A stretch of 64,000 nt of DNA from Acidobacteriota bacterium (GTDB taxonomy: Bacteria; Acidobacteriota; Thermoanaerobaculia; Thermoanaerobaculales; Thermoanaerobaculaceae): positions 143,403-207,402 of the forward strand of contig JACQZW010000034.1 in assembly GCA_016213675.1 (NCBI GenBank), read 5' to 3'. Within the stretch, counting starts at the first letter, position 1; every line of letters starts with the position of its first letter. Below, piece by piece: positions 13,290 to 57,531 of the stretch. The notes beneath the pieces are model-generated. The model searched no databases and was not told where the DNA came from. It worked only from the letters and a program-made list of their open reading frames with translations. The position numbers and the translations under genes are program-made.

Positions 13290-14951
13290 GTGACGACTGA
13301 ACGACGGGTGATACGGGCGCCTCGAGGCGCCGGGTTGTCGTGTAAGGGTTGGCCACAGGAAGCGGCGCTTCGCATGCTCATGAACAACCTCGATCCCGAG
13401 GTGGCCGAGCGCCCCGAGGACCTCGTGGTGTACGGCGGCTCCGGGAAGGCTGCCCGCAACTGGGAGTGCTTCGACGCGATCGTCCGCTCGCTGCGGGAGC
13501 TCGAGGCCGACGAGACGCTCCTCGTCCAGTCCGGCAAGCCCGTCGGGGTGTTCCACACGCACGCGGACGCTCCGAGGGTCCTGATCGCGAACGCGAACCT
13601 CGTGCCGTACTGGGCGACCGGCGACGAGTTCCGCCGTCTGGAGGCGCTCGGGTTGACGATGTTCGGACAGATGACCGCGGGCTCGTGGATCTACATCGGC
13701 ACGCAGGGGATCCTCCAGGGCACCTACGAGTGTTTTGCCGCTGCCGCGCGCCAGCACTTCGGCTCGTCGCTGCGGGGCCGCCTCGTCGTGACCGCGGGAC
13801 TCGGGGGCATGGGCGGTGCCCAGCCGCTGGCCGCGACGATGAACGATGCGACCTTTCTGGCCGCCGAGGTGGACGAGGCGCGCATCGACAAGCGCCTCGC
13901 GACCCGCTACGTCGACGAGAAGTTCCTCGACGTCGACGTGGCCATCGACCGCGCCCTGGATCTGAAGGCGGCCGGCGAGGCCCGCTCGATCGGGGTGGTC
14001 GCCAACGCCGCCGACCTCCTCGCCCGGCTGATCACCCGGGGGATCGTTCCCGACGTCCTGACCGACCAGACCTCGGCCCACGACGAGCTGAACGGGTACG
14101 TTCCCAATCGGATGAGCTACGCGGCGGCCTTGGAGCTGCGCCGGCAGGACCCTGACCGCTACAAGGCCGAGGCCTTCCGGACCATGGCCGAGCACATGCG
14201 GGCGCTGCTCGAGCTGCAGCGGCGCGGCGCCGTGACGTTCGACTACGGCAACAACCTCCGGGGTCAGGCCGTCAAGGTCGGAGTGGCCGACGCCTTCGAC
14301 GTCGTCGGCTTCGTGCCGCTCTACATCCGTCCGCTCTTCTGCGAGGGCAAGGGCCCGTTCCGCTGGGCGGCGCTCTCTGGGGATCCGCAGGACATCCTGC
14401 AGACCGACCGGGCGGTCCTCGAGCTGTTTCCCGAGGACGAGGGGTTGGCCAGGTGGATCCGCATGGCCGAAGAACGGGTCCAGTTCCAGGGGCTGCCCGC
14501 CCGGATCTGCTGGCTGGGCTACGGGGAGCGCGCCCGGGCGGGGCTGGCGTTCAACGACCTGGTGGCGTCGGGGAAGGTGTCCGCCCCCATCGTCATCGGC
14601 CGCGATCACCTCGACTCCGGGTCGGTCGCGTCACCGAACCGGGAGACGGAGGGCATGAAGGACGGCTCGGACGCGATCGGCGACTGGCCCATTCTCAACG
14701 CGCTGCTCAACACGGCGGCCGGTGCCACCTGGGTGTCGTTCCATCACGGGGGAGGCGTCGGGATCGGCTACGCGTTGCACGCCGGGATGGTCGTCGTAGC
14801 GGATGGCACCCCCGAGGCCGCGCGACGCCTCGAGCGGGTGCTCACCACGGACCCCGGCACCGGCGTCATGCGTCACGTGGACGCCGGCTACGAGGAGGCG
14901 ATCGACTGCGCGAGGAGCCGCGGGATCATTATCCCGATGCTCGGGCGCTGA
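13290..14951 (+). CDS. hutU: Urocanate hydratase
   Basis: Strong HutU similarity throughout ([62 protein letters not shown]). GTG start at 13290 gives 553 aa, typical for HutU. Confidence 0.9.
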
Positions 14952-15028
14952 GCTGGTCCGGCCTGGTCGCCGGTCTGGCCGCGACGCTGGCAGCCGGCCC
15001 GTGGCCTGCGCTCGGGACAGCTTCGTTG

Positions 15029-18000
15029 GTGTGGCGGGCGCCGCTCGTGCTCGCCGGCCTCGGCTTCGCGTGGCGGCGACTCGGCTGGCGCACGCTCGCC
15101 CTGGCGCTCCCGGCGGTCCTGGCGATCGGAATGGACGCGACCCTGCCGGCCCGGCGCGGCGATACCGTGCTGGCCGACCGGCTGGCGCTCGAGGTCGTGG
15201 CGATGCAGCGCGGCCTCGGAGCCATCGCCGACACGGAGTCGCTACGCCACCTGCTGTCCAGCGGCGGCGGCGAGGCGGAGCCCGAGGCTCCTTTCCGGGT
15301 CCTCGACGAGGCGGTGTCGGGGTTGCCGCTCCGACTCGACGCCTTCGTGATGATCGACGAGCGCGGGCAGCCGATCGGCTGGGTGGGCGAGAGGAGCCGC
15401 CTCCCGCTTCGCCTGCGCCCGCTCGGCGACCGCACGGTCTCCATCGAGCCCGGGATCGGTGCGGTCTGGCTGTGGTGGCGGGAGCCGGTCTTCGAGACCG
15501 GCCGCCCGGTCGGCGCGTTGTTGGCGGGTAGCCGTCTCCCGGAGGAAGGTGGGCGCCGGATCCTCGGAGCCTGGGCGGGACGGGCCGCCAAGGCCCGCCC
15601 CGTCCTGCAGGGCGGGCAGCCGGTGCGTGATCCGACCGGGGCCTGGTTGCTGGGCCTCGAGGTCGTGCCGGATTCCCCCGCGCTGTGGAGCGCGGGCGGG
15701 CTCGCCGCGATCGTGGGGGCCGCCTTGCTGGCGCTCCTCGGCGTCGGCCGCAGGCGAGAGGTGCTCGCCCTGGGCGCACTCCTCGGGGCCCTCCTGCTGC
15801 CGTGGCCTACTCCGGCATGGCTCGCCGCGCCGGCCCTCCTCGGCCTTGCGATCCTCGCGCATTGGCTGCCCGGGCGGCGACCGTTCCGGTTCGCGGCCAT
15901 CGTGGCTGTCGGAGCCCTGGGGTGGGTCGCGGCCGGTCTCATCGGTGAGCTCGGCGTCAACGTGGTTCCCGAGGACCTGCTGGCTCCCGGAGTGTTGCGC
16001 TTCGCCGTGATGATGGCGGCGACGCTCCTGCTGTGGGCCATCCCTCCTGCTGGCGGCAGCCTGCCCGGACCGTTGCGACTGCTGTGCTGGCTGCCGCTCG
16101 GGATCGGAGTCATCCGGGGCGAGCCGAGTCTCCTCGGTATCGGCCTCGCTGTTGCGCTCCTGGGAGGGATCCGGGGCCGGAGTGCCTTCCTCGCGGCTGT
16201 GGCGGCTGCGATGGTCCTGGTCGGTAGTGAGGACGCGGCCCGTTCGCGCGAGCTGGTCGGGAGGACCGAGGCGACCCTGGCTCGGCTGGACAGGGCGGAG
16301 GCCCCCGCCCGCGCGGTCTTGGCGCGTCCGCCCGAGGCGGCCCTCGTCGCCCTGACCAGGCTGCAAGCTGGGGAGCGGCAGGTGGTCCTCGGTCGACTCT
16401 CGCGGTGGCTGGAAGTGGAAGAGGTCCTTCCCGGCACTTCCCTGATCCTCCTCGATCCGGGAGGAAACGCCGCCGCGACGTGGGGCGAGACGACGGAGGC
16501 CTCCCCGTTGCCCGAGCCTGAGCTGGCCGCCCGGCTGCTTCCAGGCGGTTGGCAATTGGTGCTGCGCACGCCGACGCCGCCCAACGACCTGGTCGCGGCA
16601 CTCAGCGCCGCCGGCATCGACGGACCCCTGGCCGTGTTCGACAGGGCGGGAGAGGCGGTCGGCCGAGGCGGTACGTTCCGTCCGCTCTCGCCGGGTCGGG
16701 TGGGCAAGGCGCTGGCGACCGGGCGAAGCTGGGGCACGATCGGTGTCGGTGAGCGGGAGTACCGTGCCTACCTGCGCTCGCGGGGCGACGTCGTCCTGGC
16801 GGTACCGTGGATCCGCCGTCCGCCGGCCGAGTCGGCGCTGGCGGTCGGTGCACTCGGGTTGTGGGTCGCGATCCCCCTGGTCATCTGGGAGCGCCGCCGC
16901 CGATTCGGTGCCTGGTGGTCCAGGCGACACACCGTCGCCGGTCGCGTGCAAGCCCTGACCGTGCTGGCCGCCGTGGCTCCCGTGCTGGTGCTCGCCAACC
17001 TCCTGCCCCAGCAGTGGACGCGGCAGCGGGAGCGCGGTCGGCTGGAGGTGGCGCGGGCGATCGGGGGTCCGATCAGCGACGCGGGTGCCGACCGCGACAT
17101 GGGCTGGCTGGTCCGACAGAGCGGCGCCATCGTCGCGACCTACCGGGGCGGCGTGCTCGTGTGGTGCACGCGGCCGGACCTGGCCAGCGCGGGCGACGTG
17201 CCACTGATGCCGCCGGAGGGCGCCTTCGTGCGGGCCGTGCGCGGGTGGCGGGAGCCCGTCCTGGTCGGGAGCTCGCAAACCGACATCTTCGTTCCGACCC
17301 GGATGGCCGGCGAGCCGGCGGTGGTCGGCGTTCTGGGCCTGCGCGTGGCGGGCCTCGCCAGCGGCCCGTCACCGGGCGAGTGGTTCGCGGTGATGGGCGT
17401 GCTTGCGTTGCTCCTGGCCCTGGGCGGCGCCGAGCGGCTGGGCGAGCGAGTCACCGGACCCCTGAGCGCGCTCGTCCAGGCCGCGCAGCGCCTTCAGAGG
17501 GGCGAGCCGGTGCCGGAGCTGACTGTCGGGGGTGAGGAGGACGTCGCGGCGTTGGGGAGGGCGTTCGAAGCGATGGCCGGCACGGTTCAGCGTCGCGAGG
17601 AGGAGCTCAGGCGTGAGCGCGACCTGCTCGAGCGGGTCCTCGGCACGCTTTCGGCGGCGGTCATCGTGGTGGATCAGCGGGGCTCGGTCGAGCTTGCCAA
17701 CCCCGCAGGCCGCCTCCTCCTGGGTGAGAGGAATCACGTCGAGGCGTTGGCTGAGTCGTTCGGTGCCGAGATGGCGGCGCTGACGTCCCGCGCCGCCGGT
17801 GGACAGACCGCCACGACCTCGCTTCGCCCGGCGAGTGAGCCGGATGCGGTGTGGCAGGCCACGGCCCAGCCGCTGACCGGCGCGGTCGGCAGGGTGCTCC
17901 TGGTCATGGAGGACGTCTCGGTTGTCGCGCGTGCGCAGCGCCTGGCCTCGTTGGCCGAGGCAGCTCGCATCGTCGCCCATGAGGTCAAGAACCCGCTCAC

Positions 18001-18601
18001 GCCGATTCGCCTGTGGGCCGAGGAGCTGCTGGCGGCGATCGAGCGCGGGCCGCAGGCCACGGTGGACGTGGCCCGCACCGCTGCGGAGCAGATCCTCGAG
18101 CGTGTGGCCCACCTGCGCGACGTCGCCCAGGGCTTCTCGAACCTGGCAGCACTGGAGCACTGGCAGCCCGAGCTGGTCCGCCTCGGGGCTGTCCTGGAGG
18201 AGGTGGCGGCCGAGTACGCCGTCCTCGCCCAGCGGGGAGTGGCGATCGACATCGCTGCGGCGGTGGACGTCCCCGTCCTTGTGGATCCGACCTGGCTGCG
18301 CCGAGCACTCCGCCACCTCCTCGAGAACAGCGTCCGTGCGATCGGCGAGCGGGCGGGTCGTGTGGTGCTCGGCGTCGAGTCGGTTGGCGGTGCGATCACC
18401 GTCGTGGTCCGCGACAGCGGCGGGGGAGTTCCCGAGGCGCAACTGGCCCGCCTCTTCGAGCCCCACTTCTCGACGACCAGCGGGGGGAGTGGCCTCGGGC
18501 TGGCGATGGTCCAGCGGATCATGGCGAGGGCCGGCGGCCACGTCGAGGCCAGCAACGCCCAGACTGGTCTTGAGATCCGCCTCGTCTTTCCGCGGGGGTA
18601 G
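15029..18601 (+). CDS. Very large membrane sensor histidine kinase (at least 10 predicted TM helices, HAMP, PAS-like, HisKA, HATPase_c)
   Basis: The C-terminus has HAMP (LSALVQAAQRLQRGE), H-box IVAHEVKNPLTPIRLWAEEL, and N/G boxes (LLENSVRAI, DSGGGV, GGSGLGLAMV). The N-terminal ~600 aa are Leu/Ala-rich hydrophobic helices. Start ambiguous (TTG 15026/GTG 15029/ATG 15131). The ORF-table start 14453 lies inside hutU in another frame. Confidence 0.75.
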   Translation: MWRAPLVLAGLGFAWRRLGWRTLALALPAVLAIGMDATLPARRGDTVLADRLALEVVAMQRGLGAIADTESLRHLLSSGGGEAEPEAPFRVLDEAVSGLPLRLDAFVMIDERGQPIGWVGERSRLPLRLRPLGDRTVSIEPGIGAVWLWWREPVFETGRPVGALLAGSRLPEEGGRRILGAWAGRAAKARPVLQGGQPVRDPTGAWLLGLEVVPDSPALWSAGGLAAIVGAALLALLGVGRRREVLALGALLGALLLPWPTPAWLAAPALLGLAILAHWLPGRRPFRFAAIVAVGALGWVAAGLIGELGVNVVPEDLLAPGVLRFAVMMAATLLLWAIPPAGGSLPGPLRLLCWLPLGIGVIRGEPSLLGIGLAVALLGGIRGRSAFLAAVAAAMVLVGSEDAARSRELVGRTEATLARLDRAEAPARAVLARPPEAALVALTRLQAGERQVVLGRLSRWLEVEEVLPGTSLILLDPGGNAAATWGETTEASPLPEPELAARLLPGGWQLVLRTPTPPNDLVAALSAAGIDGPLAVFDRAGEAVGRGGTFRPLSPGRVGKALATGRSWGTIGVGEREYRAYLRSRGDVVLAVPWIRRPPAESALAVGALGLWVAIPLVIWERRRRFGAWWSRRHTVAGRVQALTVLAAVAPVLVLANLLPQQWTRQRERGRLEVARAIGGPISDAGADRDMGWLVRQSGAIVATYRGGVLVWCTRPDLASAGDVPLMPPEGAFVRAVRGWREPVLVGSSQTDIFVPTRMAGEPAVVGVLGLRVAGLASGPSPGEWFAVMGVLALLLALGGAERLGERVTGPLSALVQAAQRLQRGEPVPELTVGGEEDVAALGRAFEAMAGTVQRREEELRRERDLLERVLGTLSAAVIVVDQRGSVELANPAGRLLLGERNHVEALAESFGAEMAALTSRAAGGQTATTSLRPASEPDAVWQATAQPLTGAVGRVLLVMEDVSVVARAQRLASLAEAARIVAHEVKNPLTPIRLWAEELLAAIERGPQATVDVARTAAEQILERVAHLRDVAQGFSNLAALEHWQPELVRLGAVLEEVAAEYAVLAQRGVAIDIAAAVDVPVLVDPTWLRRALRHLLENSVRAIGERAGRVVLGVESVGGAITVVVRDSGGGVPEAQLARLFEPHFSTTSGGSGLGLAMVQRIMARAGGHVEASNAQTGLEIRLVFPRG

Positions 18602-18711: not shown

Positions 18712-20073
18712 ATGAGCGCCATGATCCGACGAGTTGTGGCCGCTGTTCTCTTGACCCTGGCGTCGGCGGCGTGGGCCCAACAACCGTCACGGCTCCCGCA
18801 CCGGGTCTGGCTATCCTCGGGGGTTCCCGCGGCCGACGTGCTCGCCGAGCTGCGGAGCGCCGGGATCGACGAATTGGCCGTCCCGGTCGGTGACGCAGAG
18901 CTCGGGGAGACCACGACGCGATTCACGATGCGACCGATGCCCGACCTCAAGCCGCTGGCCGGCTGGTCGGTCACCGCGCTCGTGTGGGTCAACGGCCAGG
19001 GCAAGGACGTCGGAGACGCGGAGCAGTTCTGGACCCAGTTCGCGCCGACTCTGCGCATGCTGCCGGGCAAGGGGTCGCTGCTCCTGGTCGCGCGACAGTA
19101 TTTCGAGGGTCTCTCCCGGTTTGCCGCCGCCGTCGCGGCGGAATCTGGTCAGTCGGTCGGATTGGCCCTGTCTGCCCAAGAGTTGGCCGCACACCTGCCG
19201 GTCGGCGGTTGGCCGGGCATCGAGTTGGTGCCGGTCGCGTTCGGCAACCCGCAGGCGTTCGGGTTTCCCCCCTCCACGATCCATGACGACGTGACGGCGC
19301 TCGACGAGATCGACCAACGGGGAACGCCGTATCGCCCGGCCATCGTGGTGGGATGGCGTGCCACCCCGGCACCGGGCCCGCAGCCCGTCTCTCTGTCGTT
19401 GATCACTCGCGGCAACGTGGCGACCTATACCCCCGGAGCGCGTGGCGACGTTTTCGCCCTCAAGCTTCCCGTCGACTGGGGTGGCAGCCGACTCGACGTG
19501 GGGCAGACGGTCGAGGTCGAGGTCGTCGAGACGGCCCGCTACCACCGGGATCTCGGGCTCGTGCTGCGGCCGACGCGGGCGAATCTGGTCGGGTGGGACA
19601 CCGTCTCGCTCCCTTCCGGCGAGCCTGCTCTCGGGATGAGCCGTGAGGCCTTCCTCGACTATCTGCGCGGCGGCATGCCGTACCCGACTCCGGACGTGGA
19701 GTTGGCGGTCAACGGCACCATCGTGTCCGTGGGCCTGCGAAACCCGTCGCCGCACGCCAGCGCCATCGCCACGACGGGGAACTGGGTCGAACTGCACTAC
19801 TCGGGCACCGGGGTGCGCGACATTGAGCTCGGCGAGTTCTCGGGGGTGCAGTTCGGTCGGCTCGAGGGAGGCGTCTTCAAGGAGATCGTGGCCCGCGACG
19901 CGACCCTGGTGCGCCTGTACCTCCCCTACGTGGCGCCGCGCAGTCGGGTCAGCGGCGGGGCCGTGGCGTTCCTCTCCGGACCTCGCACCCTGGCGGTACG
20001 TTGGGGTCTACGACTCGGGGACGGCAGCGTGGTGAGCGGACCTCTCGAATCGCGCGACGTCAGGACGCGGTGA
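18712..20073 (+). CDS. Secreted hypothetical protein (signal peptide, no recognised domain)
   Basis: N-terminal signal peptide MIRRVVAAVLLTLASAAWAQQ with good GC3 bias. It converges with and overlaps the 3' end of the downstream minus-strand gene by about 14 nt. Confidence 0.6.
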   Translation: MSAMIRRVVAAVLLTLASAAWAQQPSRLPHRVWLSSGVPAADVLAELRSAGIDELAVPVGDAELGETTTRFTMRPMPDLKPLAGWSVTALVWVNGQGKDVGDAEQFWTQFAPTLRMLPGKGSLLLVARQYFEGLSRFAAAVAAESGQSVGLALSAQELAAHLPVGGWPGIELVPVAFGNPQAFGFPPSTIHDDVTALDEIDQRGTPYRPAIVVGWRATPAPGPQPVSLSLITRGNVATYTPGARGDVFALKLPVDWGGSRLDVGQTVEVEVVETARYHRDLGLVLRPTRANLVGWDTVSLPSGEPALGMSREAFLDYLRGGMPYPTPDVELAVNGTIVSVGLRNPSPHASAIATTGNWVELHYSGTGVRDIELGEFSGVQFGRLEGGVFKEIVARDATLVRLYLPYVAPRSRVSGGAVAFLSGPRTLAVRWGLRLGDGSVVSGPLESRDVRTR

Positions 20074-20998
20074 TCGCGTCGATGGCTGCGATCACTCCAG
20101 CGACGGTGCCGATGCGGTGTCCGTCGGCCACCACCCACGCGGACACCCACTCACCGCTGCACGAGAGGTCGGAACAGCGGACGTGGTCGTGATCGACGGC
20201 TTCTGAGGGGCACAGTCGCTCGTGCGGGCGCGCCAGCCGGACGATGCCTCCCTCACGGAACAACGAGCGCACGGCTGAGACCCGGACGCGCGACCCGCAG
20301 CGGACCTGGACGACAGCGGCGTGGCCGAGGAAGACTCCGGCATCCAATGACTGAATCCGAACCGACAGCTCGGGGAACAGACGGCTGAACTGAGCGGCCA
20401 ATTGGTCCCGGTGTCCGGCCGCGGACGGAGCCAGGTCGAACGCGAGGATCCCCGGCAGCAGTCGGGGCCGTTTCGGTTGCGCCCCGGAGAGACGCGCCAC
20501 GCCCTGCGCCGCGAGCTCCTCGAGTGCCTCGCCGCCGAAACCCGAGACGGGGTTGATGAGCGTGATCTGACACTCCCTCGGCTCGAGCTCCGCCAGAGCG
20601 GCGACGAACGCCGCGGGTCCGGCGAGTGCCGGATCAGCGAGGTGATAGCGGTGCGCCCCGCGTGCACCCACTGGGCGCTCGGGGTCTTCGAGGCCGAGGC
20701 CGGTGACGCTCGCGTCGACCACGGTGACCTCGGGGTGGCTGCGCAGCCATTCGACCAAAGCTACCGCGACCGCCGGTGCCGGAGCCGTCGTCACGATGAC
20801 CGCGGTCGAGCCCGCAAGCTCGTCGAAATCGGTGAGGGGAGGAACCAGCGCGGCCTCGCCCGCGACCTCGGCGATCGATACCTCCGGGTCGCCGGTGGTG
20901 TGGGAGTAGGAACGGCGCGCGGTCGGGAACACCTCGGCGACGCGCTCGGCGACGTCCCGCCCGACCAGCGAGGCGGGGTCAAGGATTCTCAGGATGAG
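20060..20998 (-). CDS. Aspartate-semialdehyde dehydrogenase-like (semialdehyde DH fold) protein; start codon unresolved
   Basis: The C-terminal region resembles the Asd/ArgC dimerisation domain (VQVRCGSRVRVSAV ... VVADGHRIGTVAGVIAAIDAI) and the N-terminus is Rossmann-like (ILRILDPASLVGRDV). No in-frame ATG/GTG/TTG lies between the pssA stop (20979) and the conserved region, and the ORF-table M at 21145 would overlap pssA by 166 nt. The start is therefore uncertain. Confidence 0.4.
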   Translation of the reverse strand, partial: LILRILDPASLVGRDVAERVAEVFPTARRSYSHTTGDPEVSIAEVAGEAALVPPLTDFDELAGSTAVIVTTAPAPAVAVALVEWLRSHPEVTVVDASVTGLGLEDPERPVGARGAHRYHLADPALAGPAAFVAALAELEPRECQITLINPVSGFGGEALEELAAQGVARLSGAQPKRPRLLPGILAFDLAPSAAGHRDQLAAQFSRLFPELSVRIQSLDAGVFLGHAAVVQVRCGSRVRVSAVRSLFREGGIVRLARPHERLCPSEAVDHDHVRCSDLSCSGEWVSAWVVADGHRIGTVAGVIAAIDAITAS

Positions 20999-21800
20999 CG
21001 GGGGCAGAGGGCACCTCGGCAGATGAAAGTGGCGGTGGGTTGGGCTTCTTGGCAAAGCGGCGAACGGCGTACTCGACCGGCCCGGCCACGAGGTAAATCC
21101 CCAGCGCGAGTGCCATGGTCGGGAACCACGCGACAGCGACACCACCGACCACGAGGGCGATGAAGAAGAAGGTGGTGGCGGGCCAGCGGCGTCGCAAGTT
21201 GAAGTCCTTGAACGACCGATAGGGGACCGTCGAGACCATCAACACCGAGATCAGCAGCACGAACCCCCAGACGGCGTACGTGAGCCGCGCGTCGAGGACC
21301 GGGTCGGGGTCGCACAGGACCATCAGGGTCAGGGCTCCGGCACCACCTGGGATCGGCAGGCCGGTGAAGTAGCGACGGTCGCCATGGGCGGACTTGACGT
21401 TGAAACGGGCGAGCCGCACCGATCCGGCCACCACGAAGAGGAACGCCACCAGCCAGCCCCACCGGCCCATCCCGCGCAAGCCCCACTGGTAGGCCAGGAT
21501 CGCCGGCGCGACTCCGAAGCTCACCACGTCGGCCAGCGAGTCGTACTCCTTGCCGAACTCCGATGTGGAGTTGGTCAGCCGGGCGATGCGGCCGTCCAAG
21601 CCGTCCAGGATGCCGGCCAGGATGATGAGCATCCCCGCCAGCTCCAAGCGGCCCTCGATTGCGTGCAGGACCGCGGCGAATCCCGCCAGCATGTTCCCGA
21701 CGGTGAACAGGGATGGGATGACGTAGATGCCGCGGCGGAGCTGCTCGGGGCCGGGGTGGCGGGGCCGGGGTCGGCGAGGCCGGCGCTCACGGAGGCTCAC
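20979..21800 (-). CDS. pssA: CDP-diacylglycerol--serine O-phosphatidyltransferase (CDP-alcohol phosphatidyltransferase family)
   Basis: CDP-OH transferase motif DGLDGRIARLTNSTSEFGKEYDSLADVVS with multiple TM helices. Its start overlaps the psd stop by 4 nt. Confidence 0.85.
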   Translation of the reverse strand: MSLRERRPRRPRPRHPGPEQLRRGIYVIPSLFTVGNMLAGFAAVLHAIEGRLELAGMLIILAGILDGLDGRIARLTNSTSEFGKEYDSLADVVSFGVAPAILAYQWGLRGMGRWGWLVAFLFVVAGSVRLARFNVKSAHGDRRYFTGLPIPGGAGALTLMVLCDPDPVLDARLTYAVWGFVLLISVLMVSTVPYRSFKDFNLRRRWPATTFFFIALVVGGVAVAWFPTMALALGIYLVAGPVEYAVRRFAKKPNPPPLSSAEVPSAPAHPENP

Positions 21801-22462
21801 GGTTCGTCCACCCCACCCATCGTCGCTACCACGGTGACCCCCGCCCGGGTGCGCATCCCCGGCTCCACGGCGACCGCCGCGGAGGCAGGAAGGAAGAGAT
21901 CGACGCGCGAGCTGAACTTGATGATCCCCACGCGTTGGCCGCGCGCGACCGTGTCACCGGCCGAGAGGTCACAGACGACGCGGCGAGCGATCGAGCCGGC
22001 GATCTGCTTGTAGGCCAGCGTGCCCAGGGGCCCGTCGATGACGACGAAGCTGTGCTCGTTGAGCTCTGACGCCTTGTCCCTGAACGCCGGCAGCTTCTTG
22101 CCACGCGAGTAGCGCGCCTCGCAGACCTTGCCGGCGATCGGGGCGCGGTTGACGTGGACGTTGGCAGGCGACATGAAGATCGACACCTGGATCGGCATGC
22201 CCATTCCGGCCACGGCAGCGGGAGCAGGCCCCACGGACAGGACCTTCCCGTCGGCCGGGGCGAGGACCGCCCCGGGAGGGGCGTCGGAGTGTCGGGCCGG
22301 GTCCCGGAAGAACGAGATGCAGAACAGGGCCACGAGCCACAGGAGCACGGCGACTGTCGGATAGCCGAAGGTCCAGGCAAAAATCCCGGCGATGGCCGGG
22401 ATCAGGACGAACGGGTACCCCTCTGGGGCAAGGGGAAGCATCGCAGGGCGATCAGGAGGCAC
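21797..22462 (-). CDS. psd: Phosphatidylserine decarboxylase-related protein (short archaeal-type Psd)
   Basis: 221 aa with two N-terminal TM helices and a Psd-like C-terminus (FMSPANVHVNRAPIAGKV ... GQRVGIIKFSSRVDLFLP, with a GS-type cleavage region). Directly upstream of pssA. Confidence 0.75.
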   Translation of the reverse strand: MPPDRPAMLPLAPEGYPFVLIPAIAGIFAWTFGYPTVAVLLWLVALFCISFFRDPARHSDAPPGAVLAPADGKVLSVGPAPAAVAGMGMPIQVSIFMSPANVHVNRAPIAGKVCEARYSRGKKLPAFRDKASELNEHSFVVIDGPLGTLAYKQIAGSIARRVVCDLSAGDTVARGQRVGIIKFSSRVDLFLPASAAVAVEPGMRTRAGVTVVATMGGVDEP

Positions 22463-22670
22463 GGAGGCGTAGCATGCTCTCCATCTTGTCCTTGAGTTGG
22501 AGCTTCTCCTTCTTCAAACGTTTCTCCTCCTGCTCTTCCTCGGAGGTCAGCCAACCCTTCTGGGACAGCTCCTTGAGCCGGTTGTCACGGGCTTGGTGCT
22601 CTTCGAGGAGACGGCGGAACTCCGGGTTCTGCTGCGCCAACTGCTCGCGCAGTTCCTGTGTGGAGCTCAT
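22452..22670 (-). CDS. DUF465/YdcH-family small coiled-coil protein
   Basis: MSSTQELREQLAQQNPEFRRLLEEHQARDNRLKELSQKGWLTSEEEQEEKRLKKEKLQLKDKM is the characteristic YdcH pattern. ORF trimmed to M19. Confidence 0.7.
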   Translation of the reverse strand: MSSTQELREQLAQQNPEFRRLLEEHQARDNRLKELSQKGWLTSEEEQEEKRLKKEKLQLKDKMESMLRLRAS

Positions 22671-22736: not shown

Positions 22737-23222
22737 GTGACCGAGGTGATCTTCGCCTGCGACGCGATGCTCGGTTCGCTCGCTCGCTGGCTGCGCCTCG
22801 CGGGTTTCGATACCCGCTTCGATCCCGGTTTGTCGGACCCGGAACTGAGTGCGCTGGCAAGGCAGGAAGGACGGTGGCTCGTCACGTGCGACCGCCGGCT
22901 CGCGGCGGGCGCCGGGCCGCGCGCCATTCTCCTCGGCCAGGGACCGGTCGCCGAGCAGGTCTTCGAGCTCCGTCGCCGGCTTCCGGTCTCGGTCGAAGCA
23001 GCGCGCTTCCTCTCTCGCTGCTCACGGTGCAACGGGGCGCTGCGTGTCGTGGCTCGGGAGGAGGTTGCCGGGTCGGTTCCGCCGTACGTCGCGGTGCACG
23101 CGCCCGGCTTCAAGGTGTGCGGAGGATGCGGCAGGATCTACTGGCCGGGGACGCACACGGAGCGCATCGTGCGGAAGCTGTGGGAGTTGTTCGGCGCCGA
23201 CTCGCGGCTCACGGAGCGGTGA
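22737..23222 (+). CDS. Mut7-C RNase-domain / DUF5615-type PIN-like protein (COG1656)
   Basis: N-terminal (FACDAMLGSLARWLRLAGFD) and C-terminal zinc-ribbon-like (CSRCNG...CGGCGRIYWPGTH) features of the Mut7-C family. Confidence 0.65.
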   Translation: MTEVIFACDAMLGSLARWLRLAGFDTRFDPGLSDPELSALARQEGRWLVTCDRRLAAGAGPRAILLGQGPVAEQVFELRRRLPVSVEAARFLSRCSRCNGALRVVAREEVAGSVPPYVAVHAPGFKVCGGCGRIYWPGTHTERIVRKLWELFGADSRLTER

Positions 23223-24345
23223 GGACCAGCGCGATGGCGGACCCGCCACCGGCCTGACCGACCACGAGCGCGCTGCGCGGCGCGCTCGTCGGGAGTGGAG
23301 AGGCAAGGTCAGCAAGGTGTTCGGGGACGCCCCAGGCGAGTGACGCCCGGCCGGAGACCAGGAGCGCCGCGATCACGGCCCGTGCCGCTCCGCCGAACGC
23401 CCCGTCGCCCAGTCGCTCGGTGACTGCGACCGCAGCGGGTCGGCCCGCACGGAACAACTCCTGCCAGACATCCCGCTCGATCCGGGCGAGGGCGGGAATG
23501 CCGTTCGAGCAACTGACGACGAGGTCGATCTCGTCCGCCTTCATCGCGGCGGACTCGAGGGCCTGCCGGCAGGCACGCAGGAGTGCCCCACCGGTCCCGG
23601 GGTAGAGGTGAGGGGGAGCAACGGCGCTCGAGGACCCGGCGCCGAGGATCCGGGCGTACGGGTTGGGTCCCCCTTCGATGCCGAGCAGGAGGACCCCGGC
23701 GCCCTCGCCCATGACCATCCCCGGGCTCCCGGCCCGGCGCAGGCTGCCGAGCCGTTCGAACCCTTCGGCATTGAGCCACTGTGCCTCGTCGACGCCAGCG
23801 GCGAGGACCGCATCCGCGCGACCGTGGGTCAGTAGGCGAGCCGCCTCGCTGATCGCCCGAAGCCCGCCGACCTGTTTCTCCGCAAAGGTGACGTTGGGTC
23901 CGCCGAGCTTCTCAAGGAGGGCGAGCTGAGAGGCGGGCGCGTTGGCCACGGTGGACGGGAACTGCATCGGGGGCGCCTCGTCCGGCGACGCCAGGAAGAC
24001 CACGCGGAGCACTTCGAAGAGCGCCTCTGTACCGGCGGTCCAGGTGCCTGCCGTGACCCCGATCCGGTCGCGATCCGAGGGGAGGGTTCCGCCACCGGCG
24101 AGCGCTTCGCGGGCGGCGACGGCGAGCAGGCGTGCGGGCCGGTCGAGTCGGCGTGCGACCAACGGTGGCAGGTGGTCCTTGGCGGAGAAGTCGTGGCACG
24201 TGACGACTGCGAGCGGCGGAGCATCGGGCCGGTCCAGGCCGATCCGCGGCTGCCAGGCCGGATCGGCCAGCGCGCTGCACAGTCGCTCGACACCGGTGCC
24301 GGCTCCGGAGACGATACCGATCGAGCGGACGAACACGGCGCTCAC
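23209..24345 (-). CDS. Ketosynthase-like protein lacking the catalytic Cys (chain-length-factor / KS-beta-like partner)
   Basis: Thiolase-fold similarity (GMVMGEGAGVLLLG, C-terminal GGSAIALVL), but no TACSS active-site motif at the expected position. GTG start at 24345 overlaps the upstream KS stop (GTGA). The ORF-table 512-aa version is an upstream extension. Confidence 0.65.
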   Translation of the reverse strand: MSAVFVRSIGIVSGAGTGVERLCSALADPAWQPRIGLDRPDAPPLAVVTCHDFSAKDHLPPLVARRLDRPARLLAVAAREALAGGGTLPSDRDRIGVTAGTWTAGTEALFEVLRVVFLASPDEAPPMQFPSTVANAPASQLALLEKLGGPNVTFAEKQVGGLRAISEAARLLTHGRADAVLAAGVDEAQWLNAEGFERLGSLRRAGSPGMVMGEGAGVLLLGIEGGPNPYARILGAGSSSAVAPPHLYPGTGGALLRACRQALESAAMKADEIDLVVSCSNGIPALARIERDVWQELFRAGRPAAVAVTERLGDGAFGGAARAVIAALLVSGRASLAWGVPEHLADLASPLPTSAPRSALVVGQAGGGSAIALVLTAP

Positions 24346-25550
24346 CGCACGGCCTCCAGCGCGATCGCCGCCGAGTTTCCGCCGAAGGCGAACGAGCAGG
24401 ACAACGCGGTCCGGATGCGCACCTGCCGGCCGCGGGCGGCGACCGGATCGATCGGGCATGCGGGGTCGGCCTCGGCAAACCCGACCGTGGGCGGCGCAGT
24501 CTGCCGGGAGATGGCGAGAGCCGTGATGGCCGCCTCGATACCTCCGGCCCCGCACAGGCAGTGGCCGAGCGCGCCCTTCACCGTGGAGACCGGCATCTGG
24601 GCCAGGCGCGCGCCGAACACCCTGGCGTAGGCGGCACACTCGGCCGGGTCGGTCTGCTCCGTCGCGGTGCCGTGCGCGTTGATGTAGTCGATGGCTTCGG
24701 GAGTGACGCCGCCATCGGCGAGAGCGGCGCGGACGGTCCGCTCCCACGCAGCGCCCGTCGGCTCAGGCTGGGTCATGTGGAAGGCGTCGTTGGTGACTCC
24801 GTAGCCCCGGACCGCAGCGTAGGCCCGCGCGCCGCGAGCCCGTGCACGATCGGCGCGCTCGAGCACCAACACGGCCGCTCCCTCACCGAGCGAGAGCCCT
24901 TTGCGGCGACGGTCGAACGGCTTGCAGGGCTCGGAATCGACTGCACGGAGAGAGTTGAAGCCGGCGAACGTGAGCCTGCACAGCGCATCGGAGCCCCCGG
25001 CCAGGGCGACGTCGACCTCGCCCTCGCGGACCATCTCGGCCGCACGGCCGACCGCGATCGTCGAGGACGAGCACGCCGTGGTCACGGTGAGGCGGGGTCC
25101 GATCAGGGAGAAGGCAGCGGCGACCCGATCGGCGGGAGCATCCTGCGGAACCTCGAGGAACGTCCCCAAACCGCGCGCTCGGGGGCCGTGGCGCAGGCGG
25201 CGGGCCACGAAGTCCTCGGCCTCGAACAGCCCGGCAGTTCCACCGCCGAACACCAGTCCCCACGGGAGCTCCCCGCTTGCCCGCAGACCGGCGTCGTCAA
25301 TCGCTTCCCGGGCGGCGAGCAGCGCGAAGTGGGTGGCACGGGTCGAGTGCCTGGGGAGCAAGCCCGGCTGAGGGTCGGGGAGACTCGCCACGTCGACCTG
25401 AGCGGCCAGCGTCGTCCGGAAGCCGGTCGTATCGAACAGCGTGATCGGGCGAATCCCCGTCTCGCCCGCAGTCAGCCGCCGCCAGGTTGTCTCCCGGTCG
25501 GGACCAAGCGCGGTGAGAAGCCCGATCCCGGTGATCCACACGTCGTCCAT
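24342..25550 (-). CDS. Beta-ketoacyl-ACP synthase II-like condensing enzyme (FabF/KS-alpha type)
   Basis: Active-site motifs TACSSS, HGTATEQTD and GHCLCGAGG, with a C-terminal FAFGGNSAA. Confidence 0.85.
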   Translation of the reverse strand: MDDVWITGIGLLTALGPDRETTWRRLTAGETGIRPITLFDTTGFRTTLAAQVDVASLPDPQPGLLPRHSTRATHFALLAAREAIDDAGLRASGELPWGLVFGGGTAGLFEAEDFVARRLRHGPRARGLGTFLEVPQDAPADRVAAAFSLIGPRLTVTTACSSSTIAVGRAAEMVREGEVDVALAGGSDALCRLTFAGFNSLRAVDSEPCKPFDRRRKGLSLGEGAAVLVLERADRARARGARAYAAVRGYGVTNDAFHMTQPEPTGAAWERTVRAALADGGVTPEAIDYINAHGTATEQTDPAECAAYARVFGARLAQMPVSTVKGALGHCLCGAGGIEAAITALAISRQTAPPTVGFAEADPACPIDPVAARGRQVRIRTALSCSFAFGGNSAAIALEAVR

Positions 25551-25933
25551 CTCGGCGGAGTATAGCCGACGGGCATCCGCCGCAGGGCGACCCCGGGGAC
25601 GTCGCTCGTGAACGCATTCTGCCCGCCGCGCTGCTCGATTGGCGTGCTCAGGCGAGGGTGCCGTTCATCGTCGACTGACAGCCAGGCCCGGGTCTGCGCC
25701 GGAAGCGTCGGGAGCAAGAACGTGCCGGGATTCTCGGTGCCGGGCTCGAAGACGGGCGTGGCATTGCCCGTCCAGGGGCTTTCGTGTATCGTCGAGAGCG
25801 CGCGTGAAGGTACGGGGTGTGGCGAGGGCAGGGCGTGTAGCCCGGGTGGAACCATGGCGGGCGTGATGGGGAGCCTCTCGGGTAGCCTGGGCGAGCGGCC
25901 CCCGGACGGCTGGAACCGCGCAGGAGTGCGACC

Positions 25934-26569
25934 GTGTCCAGGGAACTCATCGAAGCTGTTCAAAAAGGCGACGTTCACCAGATTCAACGACTGATCGACG
26001 GTGGCGCCGACCCGCGCACGGTCGACAGCGATGGGAACTCGCCGCTCATGGCCGCCGCGGCAGCGGGTCAGTTCTCGGCCGTCAAGACCCTGTTGACCAA
26101 CGGCGCCGACGTCAACGTCGCGAACAAGAACAGGATGACCGCACTGCACTTCGCCTCGGCGATGCGGCACGAAGACATGGTGAAGCTGTTGCTTGCTCGC
26201 GGTGGCGTGGTCAACGCGGCCAACGACGAGGGCTTCACGGCACTGATGATAGCGGCAAGAGCCGGGCTTGCCGGCGCCGTTCAGTGCCTGTTGGAGGGCC
26301 GCGCCGACGTCAATGCGGCCAACCGCGAAGGGATCACATCCCTCATGCAGGCTGCCAGGGGGCACTATCTGACGGTCGTGAAGCTGCTGATCGACAACGG
26401 TGCCGACCCCCGCCTGCGCGACCACTTCGGCCGCCGGGCGGTGCAGTACGCCTTCGAGAAGGGCAACCCTCCCGCCGTGCTGCTCCGGTTGCTCAAGCCG
26501 GACGACACCACCGGGAAGCAGAAATCGGCCGCCGCCTCCCGCCCGTGGTGGCGTTTCTGGGGGCGCTGA
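25934..26569 (+). CDS. Ankyrin-repeat protein
   Basis: At least five ANK repeats ([36 protein letters not shown]...[23 protein letters not shown]...[15 protein letters not shown]...IDNGADP). Confidence 0.85.
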
Positions 26570-33281: not shown

Positions 33282-35603
33282 ATGCTCTCCGAACGCTCGA
33301 ACCGCATCGCACTCTCCCCGACACTCCGTATCTCCGCACGGGCACTCGCCATGAAGGCGCAGGGGATCGACGTCGTCGACTTCTCCGCCGGTGAGCCGGA
33401 CTTCGCCACGCCCGACGCGGTGAAGCGGGCCGCCAAGGAGGCGCTCGACGCCAACTTCACCAAGTACGTCGCCAACGACGGCATCCCGGAGTTGAAGAAA
33501 GCGATCTGCGAGAAGCTCGAGCGCGAGAACGGCGTGCGGTTCTCGCCGGACGAGGTCATCGTCTCGTGCGGTGCCAAGAACTCGCTCTTCAACGTCGCGA
33601 TGTCGCTCTACGAGCCCGGCGACGACGTGCTCATCCCGTCGCCCTACTGGGTGTCCTATCCCGATCAGGTGAAGCTGTGCGGCGCCAACCCGGTCTTCGT
33701 GCCGACGCGCGAGGAGGACGGCTTCCGCCTCCGAGCCCGCGAGCTCGCGGCGGCGATCACCCCGAACACCAAGGCGCTCATCCTCAACTACCCCGGCAAC
33801 CCGACCGGAGCCTTCTACTCCCGCGAGGAGCTCGAGGAAATCGCGGAAGTGTGCGTCCGCGAGCAGATCTGGGTGATCGCCGACGAGATCTACGAGAAGC
33901 TGCTCTACGACGGGCAGCGTTTCACCTCGATCGCCTCACTGAACGAGCGGATCAAGAAGCTCACCGTCGTGATCAACGGCTTCTCCAAGGCCTTCGCGAT
34001 GACCGGCTGGAGGCTCGGGTACGCCGCCGGTCCACGCGAGATCGTCGCATCCTGCTCGAAGATCCAGTCGCACAACACCTCGAACGCCACGTCGTTCGTG
34101 CAGAAGGCCGGCGTGACGGCCCTGCGCGACTGCGGGATGGAGGTGGAGCGGATGCGGCAGGAGTTCGAGCGCCGGCGCAACTACGTGGTCTACCGGCTGC
34201 GTGCGCTTCCGAGGGTGTCGTGCAACTCCCCGGCCGGGGCGTTCTACGTCATGCCCAACGTCGCCGCGTACCTCGACAAGGAGTACCAGGGAGCCCCGAT
34301 CCGCAACACCTACGGCCTGTCGTACTACCTGCTCAAGGAAGCGCACGTCGCGCTGGTCCCGGGCGAGGCGTTCGGCACCGACGAGCACCTGCGGATCTCG
34401 TTCGCGACCTCGATGGAACGGCTCGAGGAGGGGACACGTCGCATCGAGAAGGCGCTCGCCCGCCTCGAGGAGCCGCGCCGGGTGCGGCCGCGCGCCCTCG
34501 CCAACGTGCTCACCAAGGTCGTCGACTACGCCGAGACCCGCTCGATCGCCGGGCTCACGACGAGGAACGAGCTGCTCGCCGAGGTAGAGTCACACCTGCC
34601 CGCCGACTCCTACTTCGAGTGGAACGCGGCAATCGCCGGCATCGTCGTGCAACTGCGCACCTCGTCGCCGCACCTGGCCGACTTCTACCAGGAAAACTTC
34701 TACCCTGCGCCGCTCGAGAGCGACCTCGAACCCCACGCGGTCATCTACGCCGTCAAGGACGTTCCGGGTCGTGAGGCGTCCGGTGCCGTCTCACTGGAGA
34801 CCAACACCGCCTTCGTCTTCAACACGGCGTACTACGGGCAGGTCCGTTCGTTGGCGCTGCAACTCGCGGCCGAGGCCGCCTCGCGCTCGTCGGGCGCGTT
34901 GCTCGCTCACTGCGCGGCGCTCGACGTGGACGGCAGCGGCGTGCTGATCTGGGGCGGCCCCGGTTCGGGCCGCACCGGGGTCCTCGGCGCCGCGCTCGAG
35001 CGCGAGGGCGTCAAGCTCGTCGCCAGCGACTGCGTGCTGGTCCGCCATGGGGCCGAGCCGGTCGCCGACCTCGTCGAGCGGAAGCTCTACCTCAAGGCGA
35101 AGTGGGCCGGGAAGCTCCCCGAGATCGCCAAGCTCCTCGATCGCGCCAAGCTGGAGAACATCGTCACGGATCGGGCGGCCTGCCACATCGACCACCCCGA
35201 CGACGTGTGCCCTCTCGACCGGGGCGCCGCGGCATGCCTCGAGGCGTCGACGAAGGGCCGGATCGTCGTCGATCCCTACTGGCTCGGCGGCGGCACGCGC
35301 CACGCGCGGCGCACCGCACCGAAACTGTGCATCCTGCTGGCCCGCGATCCGGTTCTGCCGCTCCTCAAGGAGGTCGAGCCGCGCGAGGCCGCCCGGCTGG
35401 TCGCGAGTGGCCAGCTCCCGGGTGCCGCGGGCAAGGCGCTCCCGTTCCTCAACCCGCACCTCGCAGGGCTGGACGCAGCGCGCAGTGACCAGATGCAGGG
35501 CCAGCACGAACGGCTCTTCGCGGCCACGAAGGTGGTGATCGTCAACACCGCAGTGGGCTCTCCAGCGTCGCTGGCGGCGAGGATCACCGAGGTCGTGAAG
35601 TAG
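33282..35603 (+). CDS. Class I/II (aspartate-type) PLP-dependent aminotransferase fused to a C-terminal HPr-kinase-like P-loop domain
   Basis: Residues 1-390 match aspartate aminotransferases (NYPGNPTG, the PLP-lysine motif GFSKAFAMTGWRLGY). Residues ~520-700 match the HprK C-terminal fold (LLAHCAALDVDGSGVLIWGGPGSGRTGVLGAALEREGVKLVASDCVLV). One 773-aa uninterrupted frame. Confidence 0.75.
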   Translation: MLSERSNRIALSPTLRISARALAMKAQGIDVVDFSAGEPDFATPDAVKRAAKEALDANFTKYVANDGIPELKKAICEKLERENGVRFSPDEVIVSCGAKNSLFNVAMSLYEPGDDVLIPSPYWVSYPDQVKLCGANPVFVPTREEDGFRLRARELAAAITPNTKALILNYPGNPTGAFYSREELEEIAEVCVREQIWVIADEIYEKLLYDGQRFTSIASLNERIKKLTVVINGFSKAFAMTGWRLGYAAGPREIVASCSKIQSHNTSNATSFVQKAGVTALRDCGMEVERMRQEFERRRNYVVYRLRALPRVSCNSPAGAFYVMPNVAAYLDKEYQGAPIRNTYGLSYYLLKEAHVALVPGEAFGTDEHLRISFATSMERLEEGTRRIEKALARLEEPRRVRPRALANVLTKVVDYAETRSIAGLTTRNELLAEVESHLPADSYFEWNAAIAGIVVQLRTSSPHLADFYQENFYPAPLESDLEPHAVIYAVKDVPGREASGAVSLETNTAFVFNTAYYGQVRSLALQLAAEAASRSSGALLAHCAALDVDGSGVLIWGGPGSGRTGVLGAALEREGVKLVASDCVLVRHGAEPVADLVERKLYLKAKWAGKLPEIAKLLDRAKLENIVTDRAACHIDHPDDVCPLDRGAAACLEASTKGRIVVDPYWLGGGTRHARRTAPKLCILLARDPVLPLLKEVEPREAARLVASGQLPGAAGKALPFLNPHLAGLDAARSDQMQGQHERLFAATKVVIVNTAVGSPASLAARITEVVK

Positions 35604-44346: not shown

Positions 44347-45165
44347 CTACCCCTTGTCCCCCGGCTCCCGCCGGTAGGGCTTGCCGCGACCGAGGATCCA
44401 GGCGACGAGCGGGGCGCAGTGCCGGGACAGGAAGACCGCGAGCTTGCCGTGGCCGGTGATCACGGCCTCGCGGCGACGCCGGGCGATGGCGCGGGCGATC
44501 TTGCGGGCGGCGACGTCGGCGGGCATCCGCAGCCAGCCCGGGATCGGGTCGGCGGCGTGCTCGTGGAGGACGCCGCGGTTGTCGATCTTGCGGATCTCCG
44601 AGTCGACGAACCCCGGCGCGACGTGGACGATGGCCACGCCCTCGGTCTTCAGCTCGGCGCGCAGCGACTCGGCGAGGGCGCGAACGGCGAACTTCGACAT
44701 CGCGTACGGCGAGGCGCCCGGCGTGGCGACGAAGCCGGTGACGCTGCCGACGATCGCCAGCGTCCCGCGCGTCGCCTTCAAGAACGGCACCACCGCCTGC
44801 GCCGTGCGGATGACGCCGAAGACGTTGGTCTCGAACTGGCGGCGATAGTCGTCGACCACGAGCTTGTCGAAGCGCTTGGCGATGCCGAAGCCGGCGTTGG
44901 CGACCGCGACGTCGATCCGCCCGAGCCGCTCGGCGACGTGCTGGACGGCGCGCTCGAGGTCGCCGTCGCGGGTGACGTCGCACTGGACCGCGAGCGCTTC
45001 GACGCCGAGGGCGCGGAGCTCGACGGCGAGGGTCTCGAGCCGATCGGTCCGGCGCGCCAGCAGCGCCACGGAGGCCCCTTGCCGCGCCAGCTCGCGGGCG
45101 AGCGCCTCACCGATCCCCGACGACGCGCCGGTGACGAGGGCGACCTTGCCTTCGAGTCGCTTCAT
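44347..45165 (-). CDS. Short-chain dehydrogenase/reductase (SDR)
   Basis: TGASSGIGEA cofactor motif, NAGFG, and catalytic YAMSK (YxxxK). Trimmed to M146 of the 417-aa ORF-table entry. Confidence 0.85.
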   Translation of the reverse strand: MKRLEGKVALVTGASSGIGEALARELARQGASVALLARRTDRLETLAVELRALGVEALAVQCDVTRDGDLERAVQHVAERLGRIDVAVANAGFGIAKRFDKLVVDDYRRQFETNVFGVIRTAQAVVPFLKATRGTLAIVGSVTGFVATPGASPYAMSKFAVRALAESLRAELKTEGVAIVHVAPGFVDSEIRKIDNRGVLHEHAADPIPGWLRMPADVAARKIARAIARRRREAVITGHGKLAVFLSRHCAPLVAWILGRGKPYRREPGDKG

Positions 45166-45176
45166 CGCCCGTCTCC

Positions 45177-54900: not shown

Positions 54901-55036
54901 CCCCTCACCTCTCGACCGCAACCAATTGTACGGACGCGCCGTGCTGCGGTTCCGCCGCTCGTGTCGTCGGGTCTATTGATCCACTCCGGTCCCGCTGGTA
55001 GATTAGGTGAGGGAGTACAGACTCCAAGCAACCACC

Positions 55037-55378
55037 ATGGCACACGACTACCCACACCGCCGCCGCTTCCCGAGGATCTCGTCGGAGCACACCGTCCTGG
55101 TGAAGAAGCTGGGCGGCGACGCGGCCGAGGCGTTCGCCAAGACACGCGTCGTCGGCCTCGGCGGCTGCATGTTCGTCAGCGCCGGGCCGGTCGGCGTGGG
55201 TTCCATCGTCGAGGTGCTCATCTCGGTGCACCTCCGGGTGGTACGAGCGCTGGTCCGGGTCGTCTACGAGATCGCCAAGGGCGACACGGAGTTCGAGGTC
55301 GGAGTCGAGTTCGTCGAGATCAGTCCGGCCGATCGGCAGATCATCGAAGCGATGCTCAAGGGCGCGACCGCGACCTGA
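55037..55378 (+). CDS. PilZ-domain protein (c-di-GMP receptor type)
   Basis: RRRFPR (RxxxR) and DAAEAFAKTRVVGLGGCMFVS (D/NxSxxG-like) motifs of PilZ domains. Confidence 0.6.
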   Translation: MAHDYPHRRRFPRISSEHTVLVKKLGGDAAEAFAKTRVVGLGGCMFVSAGPVGVGSIVEVLISVHLRVVRALVRVVYEIAKGDTEFEVGVEFVEISPADRQIIEAMLKGATAT

Positions 55379-57109: not shown

Positions 57110-57113
57110 TCGC

Positions 57114-57431: not shown

Positions 57432-57531
57432 CGGCCTCGCGCTCGGTTGCCCGGATCCGCAGTGAGGCGGATCGTTGCCTTTTTCCTCCACCCGGGGCAT
57501 CATCGGACCACCACAAGAAGGGGGGAAGGCA

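Follow-up and report, generated by a model that had tools for sequence, protein, structure and literature searches.

A stand-alone gene pair of a FabF-like ketosynthase and a predicted inactive partner in a syntenic locus of Thermoanaerobaculia

Several condensing enzymes are known in which an active ketosynthase (KS) resembling FabF stands beside a FabF-like partner that has lost the catalytic residues. In the anammox ladderane system, amxFabF2 and amxFabFmut are each inactive alone, yet they co-purify and together decarboxylate malonyl-acyl carrier protein (ACP) and form acetoacetyl-ACP, and the interface helix-loop-helix of amxFabFmut is disordered except in the heterodimer (bioRxiv 10.64898/2026.05.19.726425). 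The actinorhodin (act) KS and its chain-length factor (CLF; 1tqy), the ishigamide enzymes Iga11/Iga12 (6kxd) and the aryl-polyene enzymes ApeO/ApeC (7f27/7f28) are further pairs of an active KS and an inactive partner, the latter two making reduced, fatty-acid-like chains. To our knowledge, the described KS/CLF heterodimers come from secondary-metabolite clusters and, recently, the anammox ladderane cluster, and all have their own carrier protein. Here we describe a KS gene (KSa) and a partner gene (KSb) in a 64-kb stretch of approximately 70% G+C DNA from an Acidobacteriota bacterium (contig JACQZW010000034.1; hereafter the window), where such a pair occurs without any of the usual accompanying genes. 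Our literature search found no description of the KSa-KSb family and returned only a bulk catalogue in which KS/CLF pairs resembling those of fatty acid synthase (FAS; the type II system is FAS II) are noted in non-actinobacteria including Acidobacteria, without characterization (PMC10132072). The pair and its junction are as follows.

24342-25550, minus strand: KSa, 402 aa, ATG start, a FabF-like beta-ketoacyl-ACP synthase
23209-24345, minus strand: KSb, 378 aa, GTG start, a thiolase-fold, catalytically dead FabF-derived partner (chain-length-factor-like)
24342-24357, minus strand: the KSa/KSb translational-coupling junction, with a Shine-Dalgarno-like GGAGG, a 7-nt spacer and the GTGA overlap

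KSa retains the full FabF-type catalytic set. Its motifs TACSSS, HGTAT and GHCLC account for Cys160, His293, Lys325 and His330, so that the intact Cys-His-His triad reported in a preliminary description of this DNA (Cys160/His293/His330) is confirmed, and the gating-loop motif FAFGG is present as well. When the active-site columns were read from a 235-sequence MAFFT alignment, they were Cys-His-Lys-His in the window KSa and in 30 of 30 sampled orthologues. Against the NCBIfam fabF model TIGR03150, KSa scored 352.6 bits, below the curated cutoff of 493.75. The best match among solved structures was Bacillus subtilis FabF (256 bits, 38% identity), followed by amxFabF2 (248.7 bits, 34% identity), Iga11 (223 bits) and Escherichia coli FabF (222 bits), with lower scores for the act KS (195.5 bits), ApeO (187), KasA (164) and FabB (145). 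On these scores KSa is classed as FabF-like and not as a FabF equivalog. A 5-residue loop that precedes RPFD/RPWD in the B. subtilis and E. coli FabF proteins is missing from KSa; the shorter C(K/R)PFD form is common to KSa, amxFabF2 and the KS halves of fused KS-partner proteins, and the same three share TAG at the position of Ile108 of B. subtilis FabF.

KSb has lost every catalytic residue that KSa has kept. The preliminary description had portrayed it as a thiolase-fold protein lacking the nucleophilic Cys, and in our alignments the nucleophile position is occupied by Gln158, which lies opposite Cys160 of KSa in the MAFFT alignment and opposite the engineered Gln of E. coli FabF C163Q in the HMMER alignment; no Cys emerged after alignment. 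In all orthologues, the first His column is variable, the Lys is replaced by Thr, Ala, Ser or Asn, and the second His by Asp or Glu. The EKQ motif containing the Gln is invariant in 20 of 20 aligned KSb orthologues, and its Lys and Gln are invariant in all 30 sampled, one of which has Gln for the Glu. The ketoacyl-synt N- and C-terminal domains of Pfam were found in both proteins (E-values of 1e-39 and 8e-33 for KSa and 1e-16 for KSb), and KSb scored 77.8 bits against TIGR03150, again below the cutoff; neither protein is a member of a curated family. The AlphaFold model of KSb is confident (predicted local distance difference test score, pLDDT, 93.8) and positions Gln158 at the strand-to-helix elbow that carries the Cys in FabF; low confidence is confined to residues 129-134, inside the interface loop. 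A Foldseek search with this model returned FabF structures on top (template modeling scores of 0.86-0.89), and Iga11, the KS subunit of the ishigamide KS/CLF, first appeared at rank 44.

The distribution of conservation within KSb is uneven. It is concentrated in residues 61-80 and 101-200 and is low in the C-terminal half, the part that serves catalysis in true ketosynthases. In orthologues with identities as low as 55%, 72 residues are invariant, 28 of which fall in residues 101-167, the counterpart of the helix-loop-helix and nucleophile-elbow region. In FabF dimers this region (residues 110-140) lines the substrate tunnel of the partner protomer (bioRxiv 10.64898/2026.05.19.726425).

In order to place KSb among the characterized partners, a family profile was built from 20 orthologues and scored against solved chains. 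The highest scores were obtained for amxFabF2 (98.2 bits), E. coli FabF C163Q (97 bits) and Thermus FabF (94 bits), followed by amxFabFmut (83.9 bits), the act CLF (73.7 bits, compared with 93-98 bits for FabF and amxFabF2), ApeC (63.1 bits) and Iga12 (51.5 bits). Searches with the single KSb sequence gave 67 bits for FabF, 47.4 for Iga12 (6kxd_B), 45 for amxFabFmut (9s5h_C) and 31.6 for ApeC (7f28_B), all three partners thus scoring below FabF, and no match to the act CLF (1tqy_B) at E<=0.01. KSb therefore resembles the aromatic polyketide synthase (PKS) CLFs in its Cys-to-Gln replacement, but in sequence and predicted fold it is closer to FabF than to any of the characterized CLFs. By these comparisons it is a FabF-derived pseudo-enzyme outside every characterized CLF clade.

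The system closest in kind is the anammox heterodimer, in which an active FabF-like KS likewise stands beside a FabF-like partner lacking the triad. Among solved structures, amxFabF2 ranks near the top for KSa and first for the KSb profile, the short loop ahead of C(K/Q)PFD is common to amxFabF2 and KSa, and amxFabFmut, like KSb, has FabF and not a CLF as its closest structural homologue (bioRxiv 10.64898/2026.05.19.726425). The two systems differ in the residue at the nucleophile position (Val or Thr in the anammox partner, Gln in KSb), in gene order, the mut gene lying upstream in anammox bacteria, in phylum, and in genomic setting, since the cluster of the anammox pair includes dedicated ACP and radical-SAM genes and none of these lie near KSa and KSb. 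As KSb matches amxFabFmut less well than FabF both as a single sequence (45 versus 67 bits) and as a profile (83.9 versus 97 bits), the two partners are not orthologues. KSa-KSb is a lineage-specific, stand-alone variant on the theme of KS/CLF heterodimers. The act system also shares with the pair an active KS coupled to a Cys-to-Gln partner, a presumed heterodimer with a partner-shaped tunnel, but aromatic type II PKS clusters contain a dedicated ACP and usually a cyclase, an aromatase or a ketoreductase (KR). The clusters of Iga11/Iga12 and ApeO/ApeC similarly contain their own ACP, KR and dehydratase (DH) genes, unlike KSa-KSb. The canonical homodimeric FabF (KAS II) shares its fold with both proteins and is overall the most similar to them in sequence and structure; compared with it, KSa keeps the catalytic set and the FGG of the gating loop and lacks the 5-residue loop, KSb is dead, and the pair has no acpP or fab gene context.

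Beyond its own orthologues, the nearest relatives of KSb (full-length matches at E<=1e-30, 28-38% identity) are all Cys-less KS partners, none of which passed any NCBIfam model. Many share with KSb a Lys immediately preceding the missing Cys (QKE, QKD or QKQ, compared with EKQ) and an FP(S/N)TVANAPAS motif. They include the C-terminal halves of KS-partner fusions of approximately 800 aa and form subfamilies separate from KSb. Genomic context was read from four contigs carrying such relatives, one of which was long enough to be informative, and there the fused relative lies inside a complete cluster. This fusion (L046) is accompanied by genes for an acyltransferase (AT), KR, ACP, FabA/ApeI-like DH, ATP-binding cassette (ABC) transporter, GNAT protein, GCV_T protein, glycosyltransferase (GT) and thioesterase (TE). 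Around the distant relative P0250, ACP, KR and ApeI/ApeP-like DH genes surround the KS and its partner. Metagenomes hold a large uncurated population of Cys-less FabF-like partners (proteins P0245-P0389), and their number suggests that the phenomenon is broader than one lineage.

The KSa-KSb pair was recovered at approximately 40 loci of Thermoanaerobaculia, each of which has KSb directly after KSa and lacks a third KS. A scan of one genome per GTDB species yielded 36 loci, nearly all labeled Acidobacteriota/Acidobacteria or with ranks within Thermoanaerobaculia, the exceptions by label being one Terriglobia, one Holophagae and one unclassified bacterium. The labels of the metagenome-assembled genomes (MAGs) holding close homologues were Thermoanaerobaculia, Thermoanaerobaculales, Thermoanaerobaculaceae, Thermoanaerobaculum or the broader Acidobacteria/Acidobacteriota, with almost no others; two KSa homologues were labeled Acidobacteriia or Terriglobia. 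The KSb family is tight, as a single 50%-identity cluster holds all full-length members among 1.84 billion representative proteins, and the next full-length matches have at most 38% identity, with 13 proteins in total at E<=1e-30. A complete Thermoanaerobaculia MAG of the GTDB order UBA5704, CP064972, has fabH, fabD, fabG, fabZ and the fabF entry in its KEGG Orthology (KO) table (PMC8100337 supplement); the fabF entry, K09458, does not separate KSa from FabF. This genome was not among the pair-bearing matches of the species-level scan, which may mean that the pair is limited to Thermoanaerobaculales and is not class-wide.

The TGA stop of KSa and the GTG start of KSb overlap as GTGA, with GGAGG 7 nt upstream of the GTG, which bears out the translational coupling proposed earlier; an RTGA overlap preceded by a GGAG-like purine run was found in 34 of 38 orthologous loci, in keeping with equal synthesis of two subunits. 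Comparison of the window with an 88%-identical relative gave ratios of nonsynonymous to synonymous substitution rates (dN/dS) of 0.126 for KSa and 0.111 for KSb, indicating purifying selection on both. KSb is full length in every complete sampled locus, and truncated copies occur only at contig ends. The gene order mscL, KSa, KSb, Mut7-C, DUF465, psd, pssA, asd-like gene and a 453-aa gene is kept at approximately 30 loci and persists down to approximately 50% KSb identity, interrupted by 5-kb insertions in two loci and broken in one, and synteny reaches further to a histidine kinase and urocanase. In these genomes the pair forms a syntenic, vertically inherited core locus and is not an isolated biosynthetic remnant.

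Where synteny is broken (L022, L032 and L037), no biosynthetic partners were found, the neighbors being CARDB or CarboxypepD_reg proteins, plus a FakA-DegV fusion in L032. In L032, the only relative with a break in the downstream synteny, the next gene after KSb has the same orientation and encodes a 682-aa fusion of FakA (Dak2, FakA-like_M) and a DegV fatty-acid-binding protein (L032 11215-13263, plus strand), a second, independent lipid-related neighbor.

In agreement with the earlier statement that the pair stands alone, no ACP, KR, DH, AT, cyclase or transporter gene was linked to it in the window or in the 10-kb flanks of its orthologues. A regular expression for the phosphopantetheine-site motif, which detected the ACP of the control cluster, found no ACP motif in the 64-kb window or in 12 orthologous loci. 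The AT, KR, ACP and DH of this control, a distant complete cluster, were searched by tblastn against the window and approximately 40 loci, and the sole match was an unrelated short-chain dehydrogenase/reductase (44347-45600) located 19 kb from the pair. The stretch separating KSb from psd and the 383-nt region upstream were also examined for a hidden ACP, and the only open reading frames (ORFs) there were Mut7-C and DUF465. The pair was likewise found to lie outside any fab cluster, a setting that the preliminary description had named as one that would speak against its proposal of a pair that could feed an uncharacterized lipid or polyketide pathway.

On the basis of the active-site residues, translational coupling, sequence conservation, predicted fold and absence of linked partner genes, we infer an obligate heterodimer of the KS/CLF type that would act on a membrane acyl chain together with the housekeeping ACP and FAS II in trans, an explanation to which we give roughly an even chance. 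KSa would perform the chemistry, with acyl transfer to Cys160 and a decarboxylative Claisen condensation with malonyl-ACP by way of His293 and His330. KSb would stand in for one of the two protomers of the normal homodimer and, in the manner of a CLF, shape the acyl tunnel at the dimer interface, and the enzyme would draw on the general ACP and the reductive enzymes of FAS II in trans. Its output would be a membrane acyl chain, either elongated to a length set by the partner or primed independently of FabH through decarboxylation of malonyl-ACP, the latter option being modeled on the in vitro behavior of the anammox amxFabF heterodimer. One subunit is active and the other dead, they co-occur strictly, and both are under purifying selection. 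As no ACP, AT, KR or DH is linked to the pair in approximately 40 genomes and the locus is syntenic and vertical, work in trans with the general ACP and FAS II is the most likely arrangement, and vertical inheritance as a syntenic core locus favors a role in primary lipid synthesis over one in polyketide synthesis.

Several points weigh against this explanation. Heterodimer formation is argued from gene coupling, strict co-occurrence and the pattern of conservation, and the use of the housekeeping FAS in trans is assumed. The nearness of psd and pssA says little about function, as the synteny takes in unrelated genes (urocanase, histidine kinase and mscL) and thus reflects a stable chromosome region more than a functional module; the link of the pair to phospholipid synthesis through these two genes is accordingly weak. 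The shortened loop of KSa leans towards a secondary-type lineage. The invariant Gln of KSb, in turn, suggests a decarboxylase-type role, yet both of the His residues that such a role would need are absent. Decarboxylation by KSQ domains and by Cys-to-Gln mutants of FabF and KasA depends on two His; KSb has the Gln of a KSQ-type decarboxylating domain and neither His in any orthologue, and the role of this Gln is therefore hard to explain.

A KS/CLF architecture with a Cys-to-Gln replacement is the hallmark of type II PKSs, and the pair could alternatively form the condensing core of a type II PKS, aryl-polyene-like or polyene pathway dispersed over the genome, with the ACP, KR, DH and tailoring genes lying elsewhere. 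Such a pathway is also favored by the shortened KSa loop before CKPFD, a PKS-like indel shared with amxFabF2 and the fused KS-partner proteins, and by the nearest non-orthologous relatives of KSb, which are Cys-less partners and at least one of which lies in a complete AT/KR/ACP/DH/ABC/GT/TE cluster. We nevertheless consider it unlikely, because in approximately 40 genomes the pair never has a linked ACP, KR, DH, cyclase or transporter gene, because a syntenic vertical locus with housekeeping-like dN/dS is unlike patchy, mobile biosynthetic clusters, and because the act CLF, ApeC and Iga12 all give KSb lower scores than FabF does. Still less probable, in our judgment, is that the heterodimer is the main housekeeping elongating ketosynthase of the lineage and has replaced the canonical homodimeric FabF. 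The identity of KSa to B. subtilis FabF (38%) and its score (352 bits against the 494-bit fabF cutoff) are far below what would be expected for a true cross-phylum FabF orthologue, and we know of no precedent for replacement of FabF by such a heterodimer. The presence and conservation of the pair in every recovered relative under strong purifying selection, its core-genome setting beside phospholipid genes, and the IMG annotation of both proteins as FabF (3-oxoacyl-ACP synthase II, in JGI metagenome records) would all agree with replacement, and as both carry the FabF label, a genuinely missing fabF would go unnoticed. The sister-order Thermoanaerobaculia genome with a full FAS II KO set (PMC8100337), however, was not recovered as a carrier of the pair.

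Two further explanations are rejected. That it is a decaying, functionless duplicate, leaving KSa to act alone as a homodimeric FabF paralogue, might be read from the loss of all catalytic residues and the poor conservation of the C-terminal half, but a protein that is full length, with a dN/dS of 0.11, 72 invariant residues, the EKQ motif, an overlapping start codon and a confidently predicted fold makes this highly improbable, and the conservation data rule out a KSb pseudogene. That KSa and KSb are both ordinary fabF paralogues, for which it can be said that fabF is the best curated-model match for each, has a negligible probability, as both score below the cutoff, KSb lacks the Cys, both His and the Lys, and there is no fab-cluster context; the active-site alignment rules it out.

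A wider claim is that primary metabolism has taken over a KS/CLF-type heterodimer, which would act with the housekeeping ACP and FAS II enzymes in FabH-independent decarboxylative priming or in setting membrane acyl-chain length and is perhaps the main elongating ketosynthase of Thermoanaerobaculales. We regard this claim as possible but on balance rather unlikely; if true, it would be the first case of CLF-style chain-length control in the bulk membrane-lipid synthesis of a whole bacterial lineage. What is new here is two-subunit KS logic as a stand-alone vertical core locus in a widespread, barely cultivated acidobacterial lineage. Should the pair use the housekeeping ACP, partner-controlled condensing enzymes would belong to ordinary membrane-lipid synthesis in some bacteria, annotation pipelines that name both genes fabF would be hiding the phenomenon, and the invariant Gln in a site without both His would call for a new explanation.

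The features surrounding the pair are listed below.

25551-25933, 383 nt: divergent intergenic region between KSa and the ankyrin-repeat gene, the presumed promoter region of the pair
22737-23222, plus strand: Mut7-C (PIN-like RNase) gene, convergent, with PF01927 Mut7-C recorded on orthologues
22452-22670, minus strand: DUF465 gene, 72 aa, with DUF465 recorded on orthologues
21797-22462, minus strand: psd, Pfam PS_Dcarbxylase
20979-21800, minus strand: pssA, Pfam CDP-OH_P_transf
20060-21145 as the longest ORF, minus strand: asd-like ORF, weak Pfam Semialdhyde_dhC
20060-22670, minus strand: downstream unit of DUF465, psd, pssA and the asd-like ORF, apart from the KS pair

The pair is a two-gene unit flanked by the divergent 383-nt region and, at its other end, by the convergent Mut7-C gene, which terminates the KS transcription unit and whose 3' end overlaps that of KSb by 14 nt. 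The preliminary description had placed psd and pssA immediately downstream, which does not hold: they are on the same strand, but approximately 750 nt away, and as the convergent Mut7-C gene and the DUF465 gene intervene, they form a separate transcription unit. The 383-nt divergent region that it reported before the ankyrin-repeat gene was found as described. A scan for promoters and terminators around the pair gave nothing usable, with no sigma-70 consensus site in 25551-25933, and an Rfam scan of the whole window matched no family. Given the 14-nt overlap, the KSb and Mut7-C transcripts would be antisense at their ends, and this convergent arrangement is kept in approximately 33 related loci. 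On the other side, the divergent neighbor in most relatives is mscL, with different genes in others. The ankyrin-repeat gene (25934-26569, plus strand, 211 aa) separates mscL from KSa in just two cases, the window and its closest relative (L001), and it is therefore a recent insertion and the 383-nt region is not conserved.

The asd-like ORF after pssA is kept in approximately 30 related loci. Only the semialdehyde dehydrogenase dimerization domain was matched, weakly (Pfam E-value of 1.5e-4; below 30 bits in NCBIfam), and the ORF may encode an uncharacterized oxidoreductase tied to the phosphatidylethanolamine operon. Because its longest version runs into pssA, translation probably begins further downstream.

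The rest of the window, as annotated with Pfam and NCBIfam, holds ordinary chromosomal genes, including those for chemotaxis, two-component, urocanase, phosphoenolpyruvate (PEP) carboxykinase, flotillin, aspartate aminotransferase, phosphofructokinase, methylmalonyl-CoA-decarboxylase-type carboxyltransferase and PilZ proteins. A sensor-kinase-like protein (14453-18601, plus strand) is 1382 aa as the longest ORF, with only a C-terminal HATPase_c domain recognized; its orthologues, of approximately 1200 aa, are kept beside urocanase in the same syntenic block. A 773-aa ORF (33282-35603, plus strand) matches aspartate aminotransferase in its N-terminal 395 aa (NCBIfam, 407 bits) and has a C-terminal tail of approximately 380 aa with no Pfam match, representing either a fusion or two genes read through. 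Finally, three PilZ-domain proteins (55007-55378, 60559-61257 and 61508-62323) and a double cyclic nucleotide (cNMP)-binding protein (62140-63312) cluster around the methylmalonyl-CoA-decarboxylase-type carboxyltransferase with its biotin carrier (55532-57431), and this 55007-63312 cluster also contains a PhoD phosphatase and a YhhN-family membrane protein (59866-60507).

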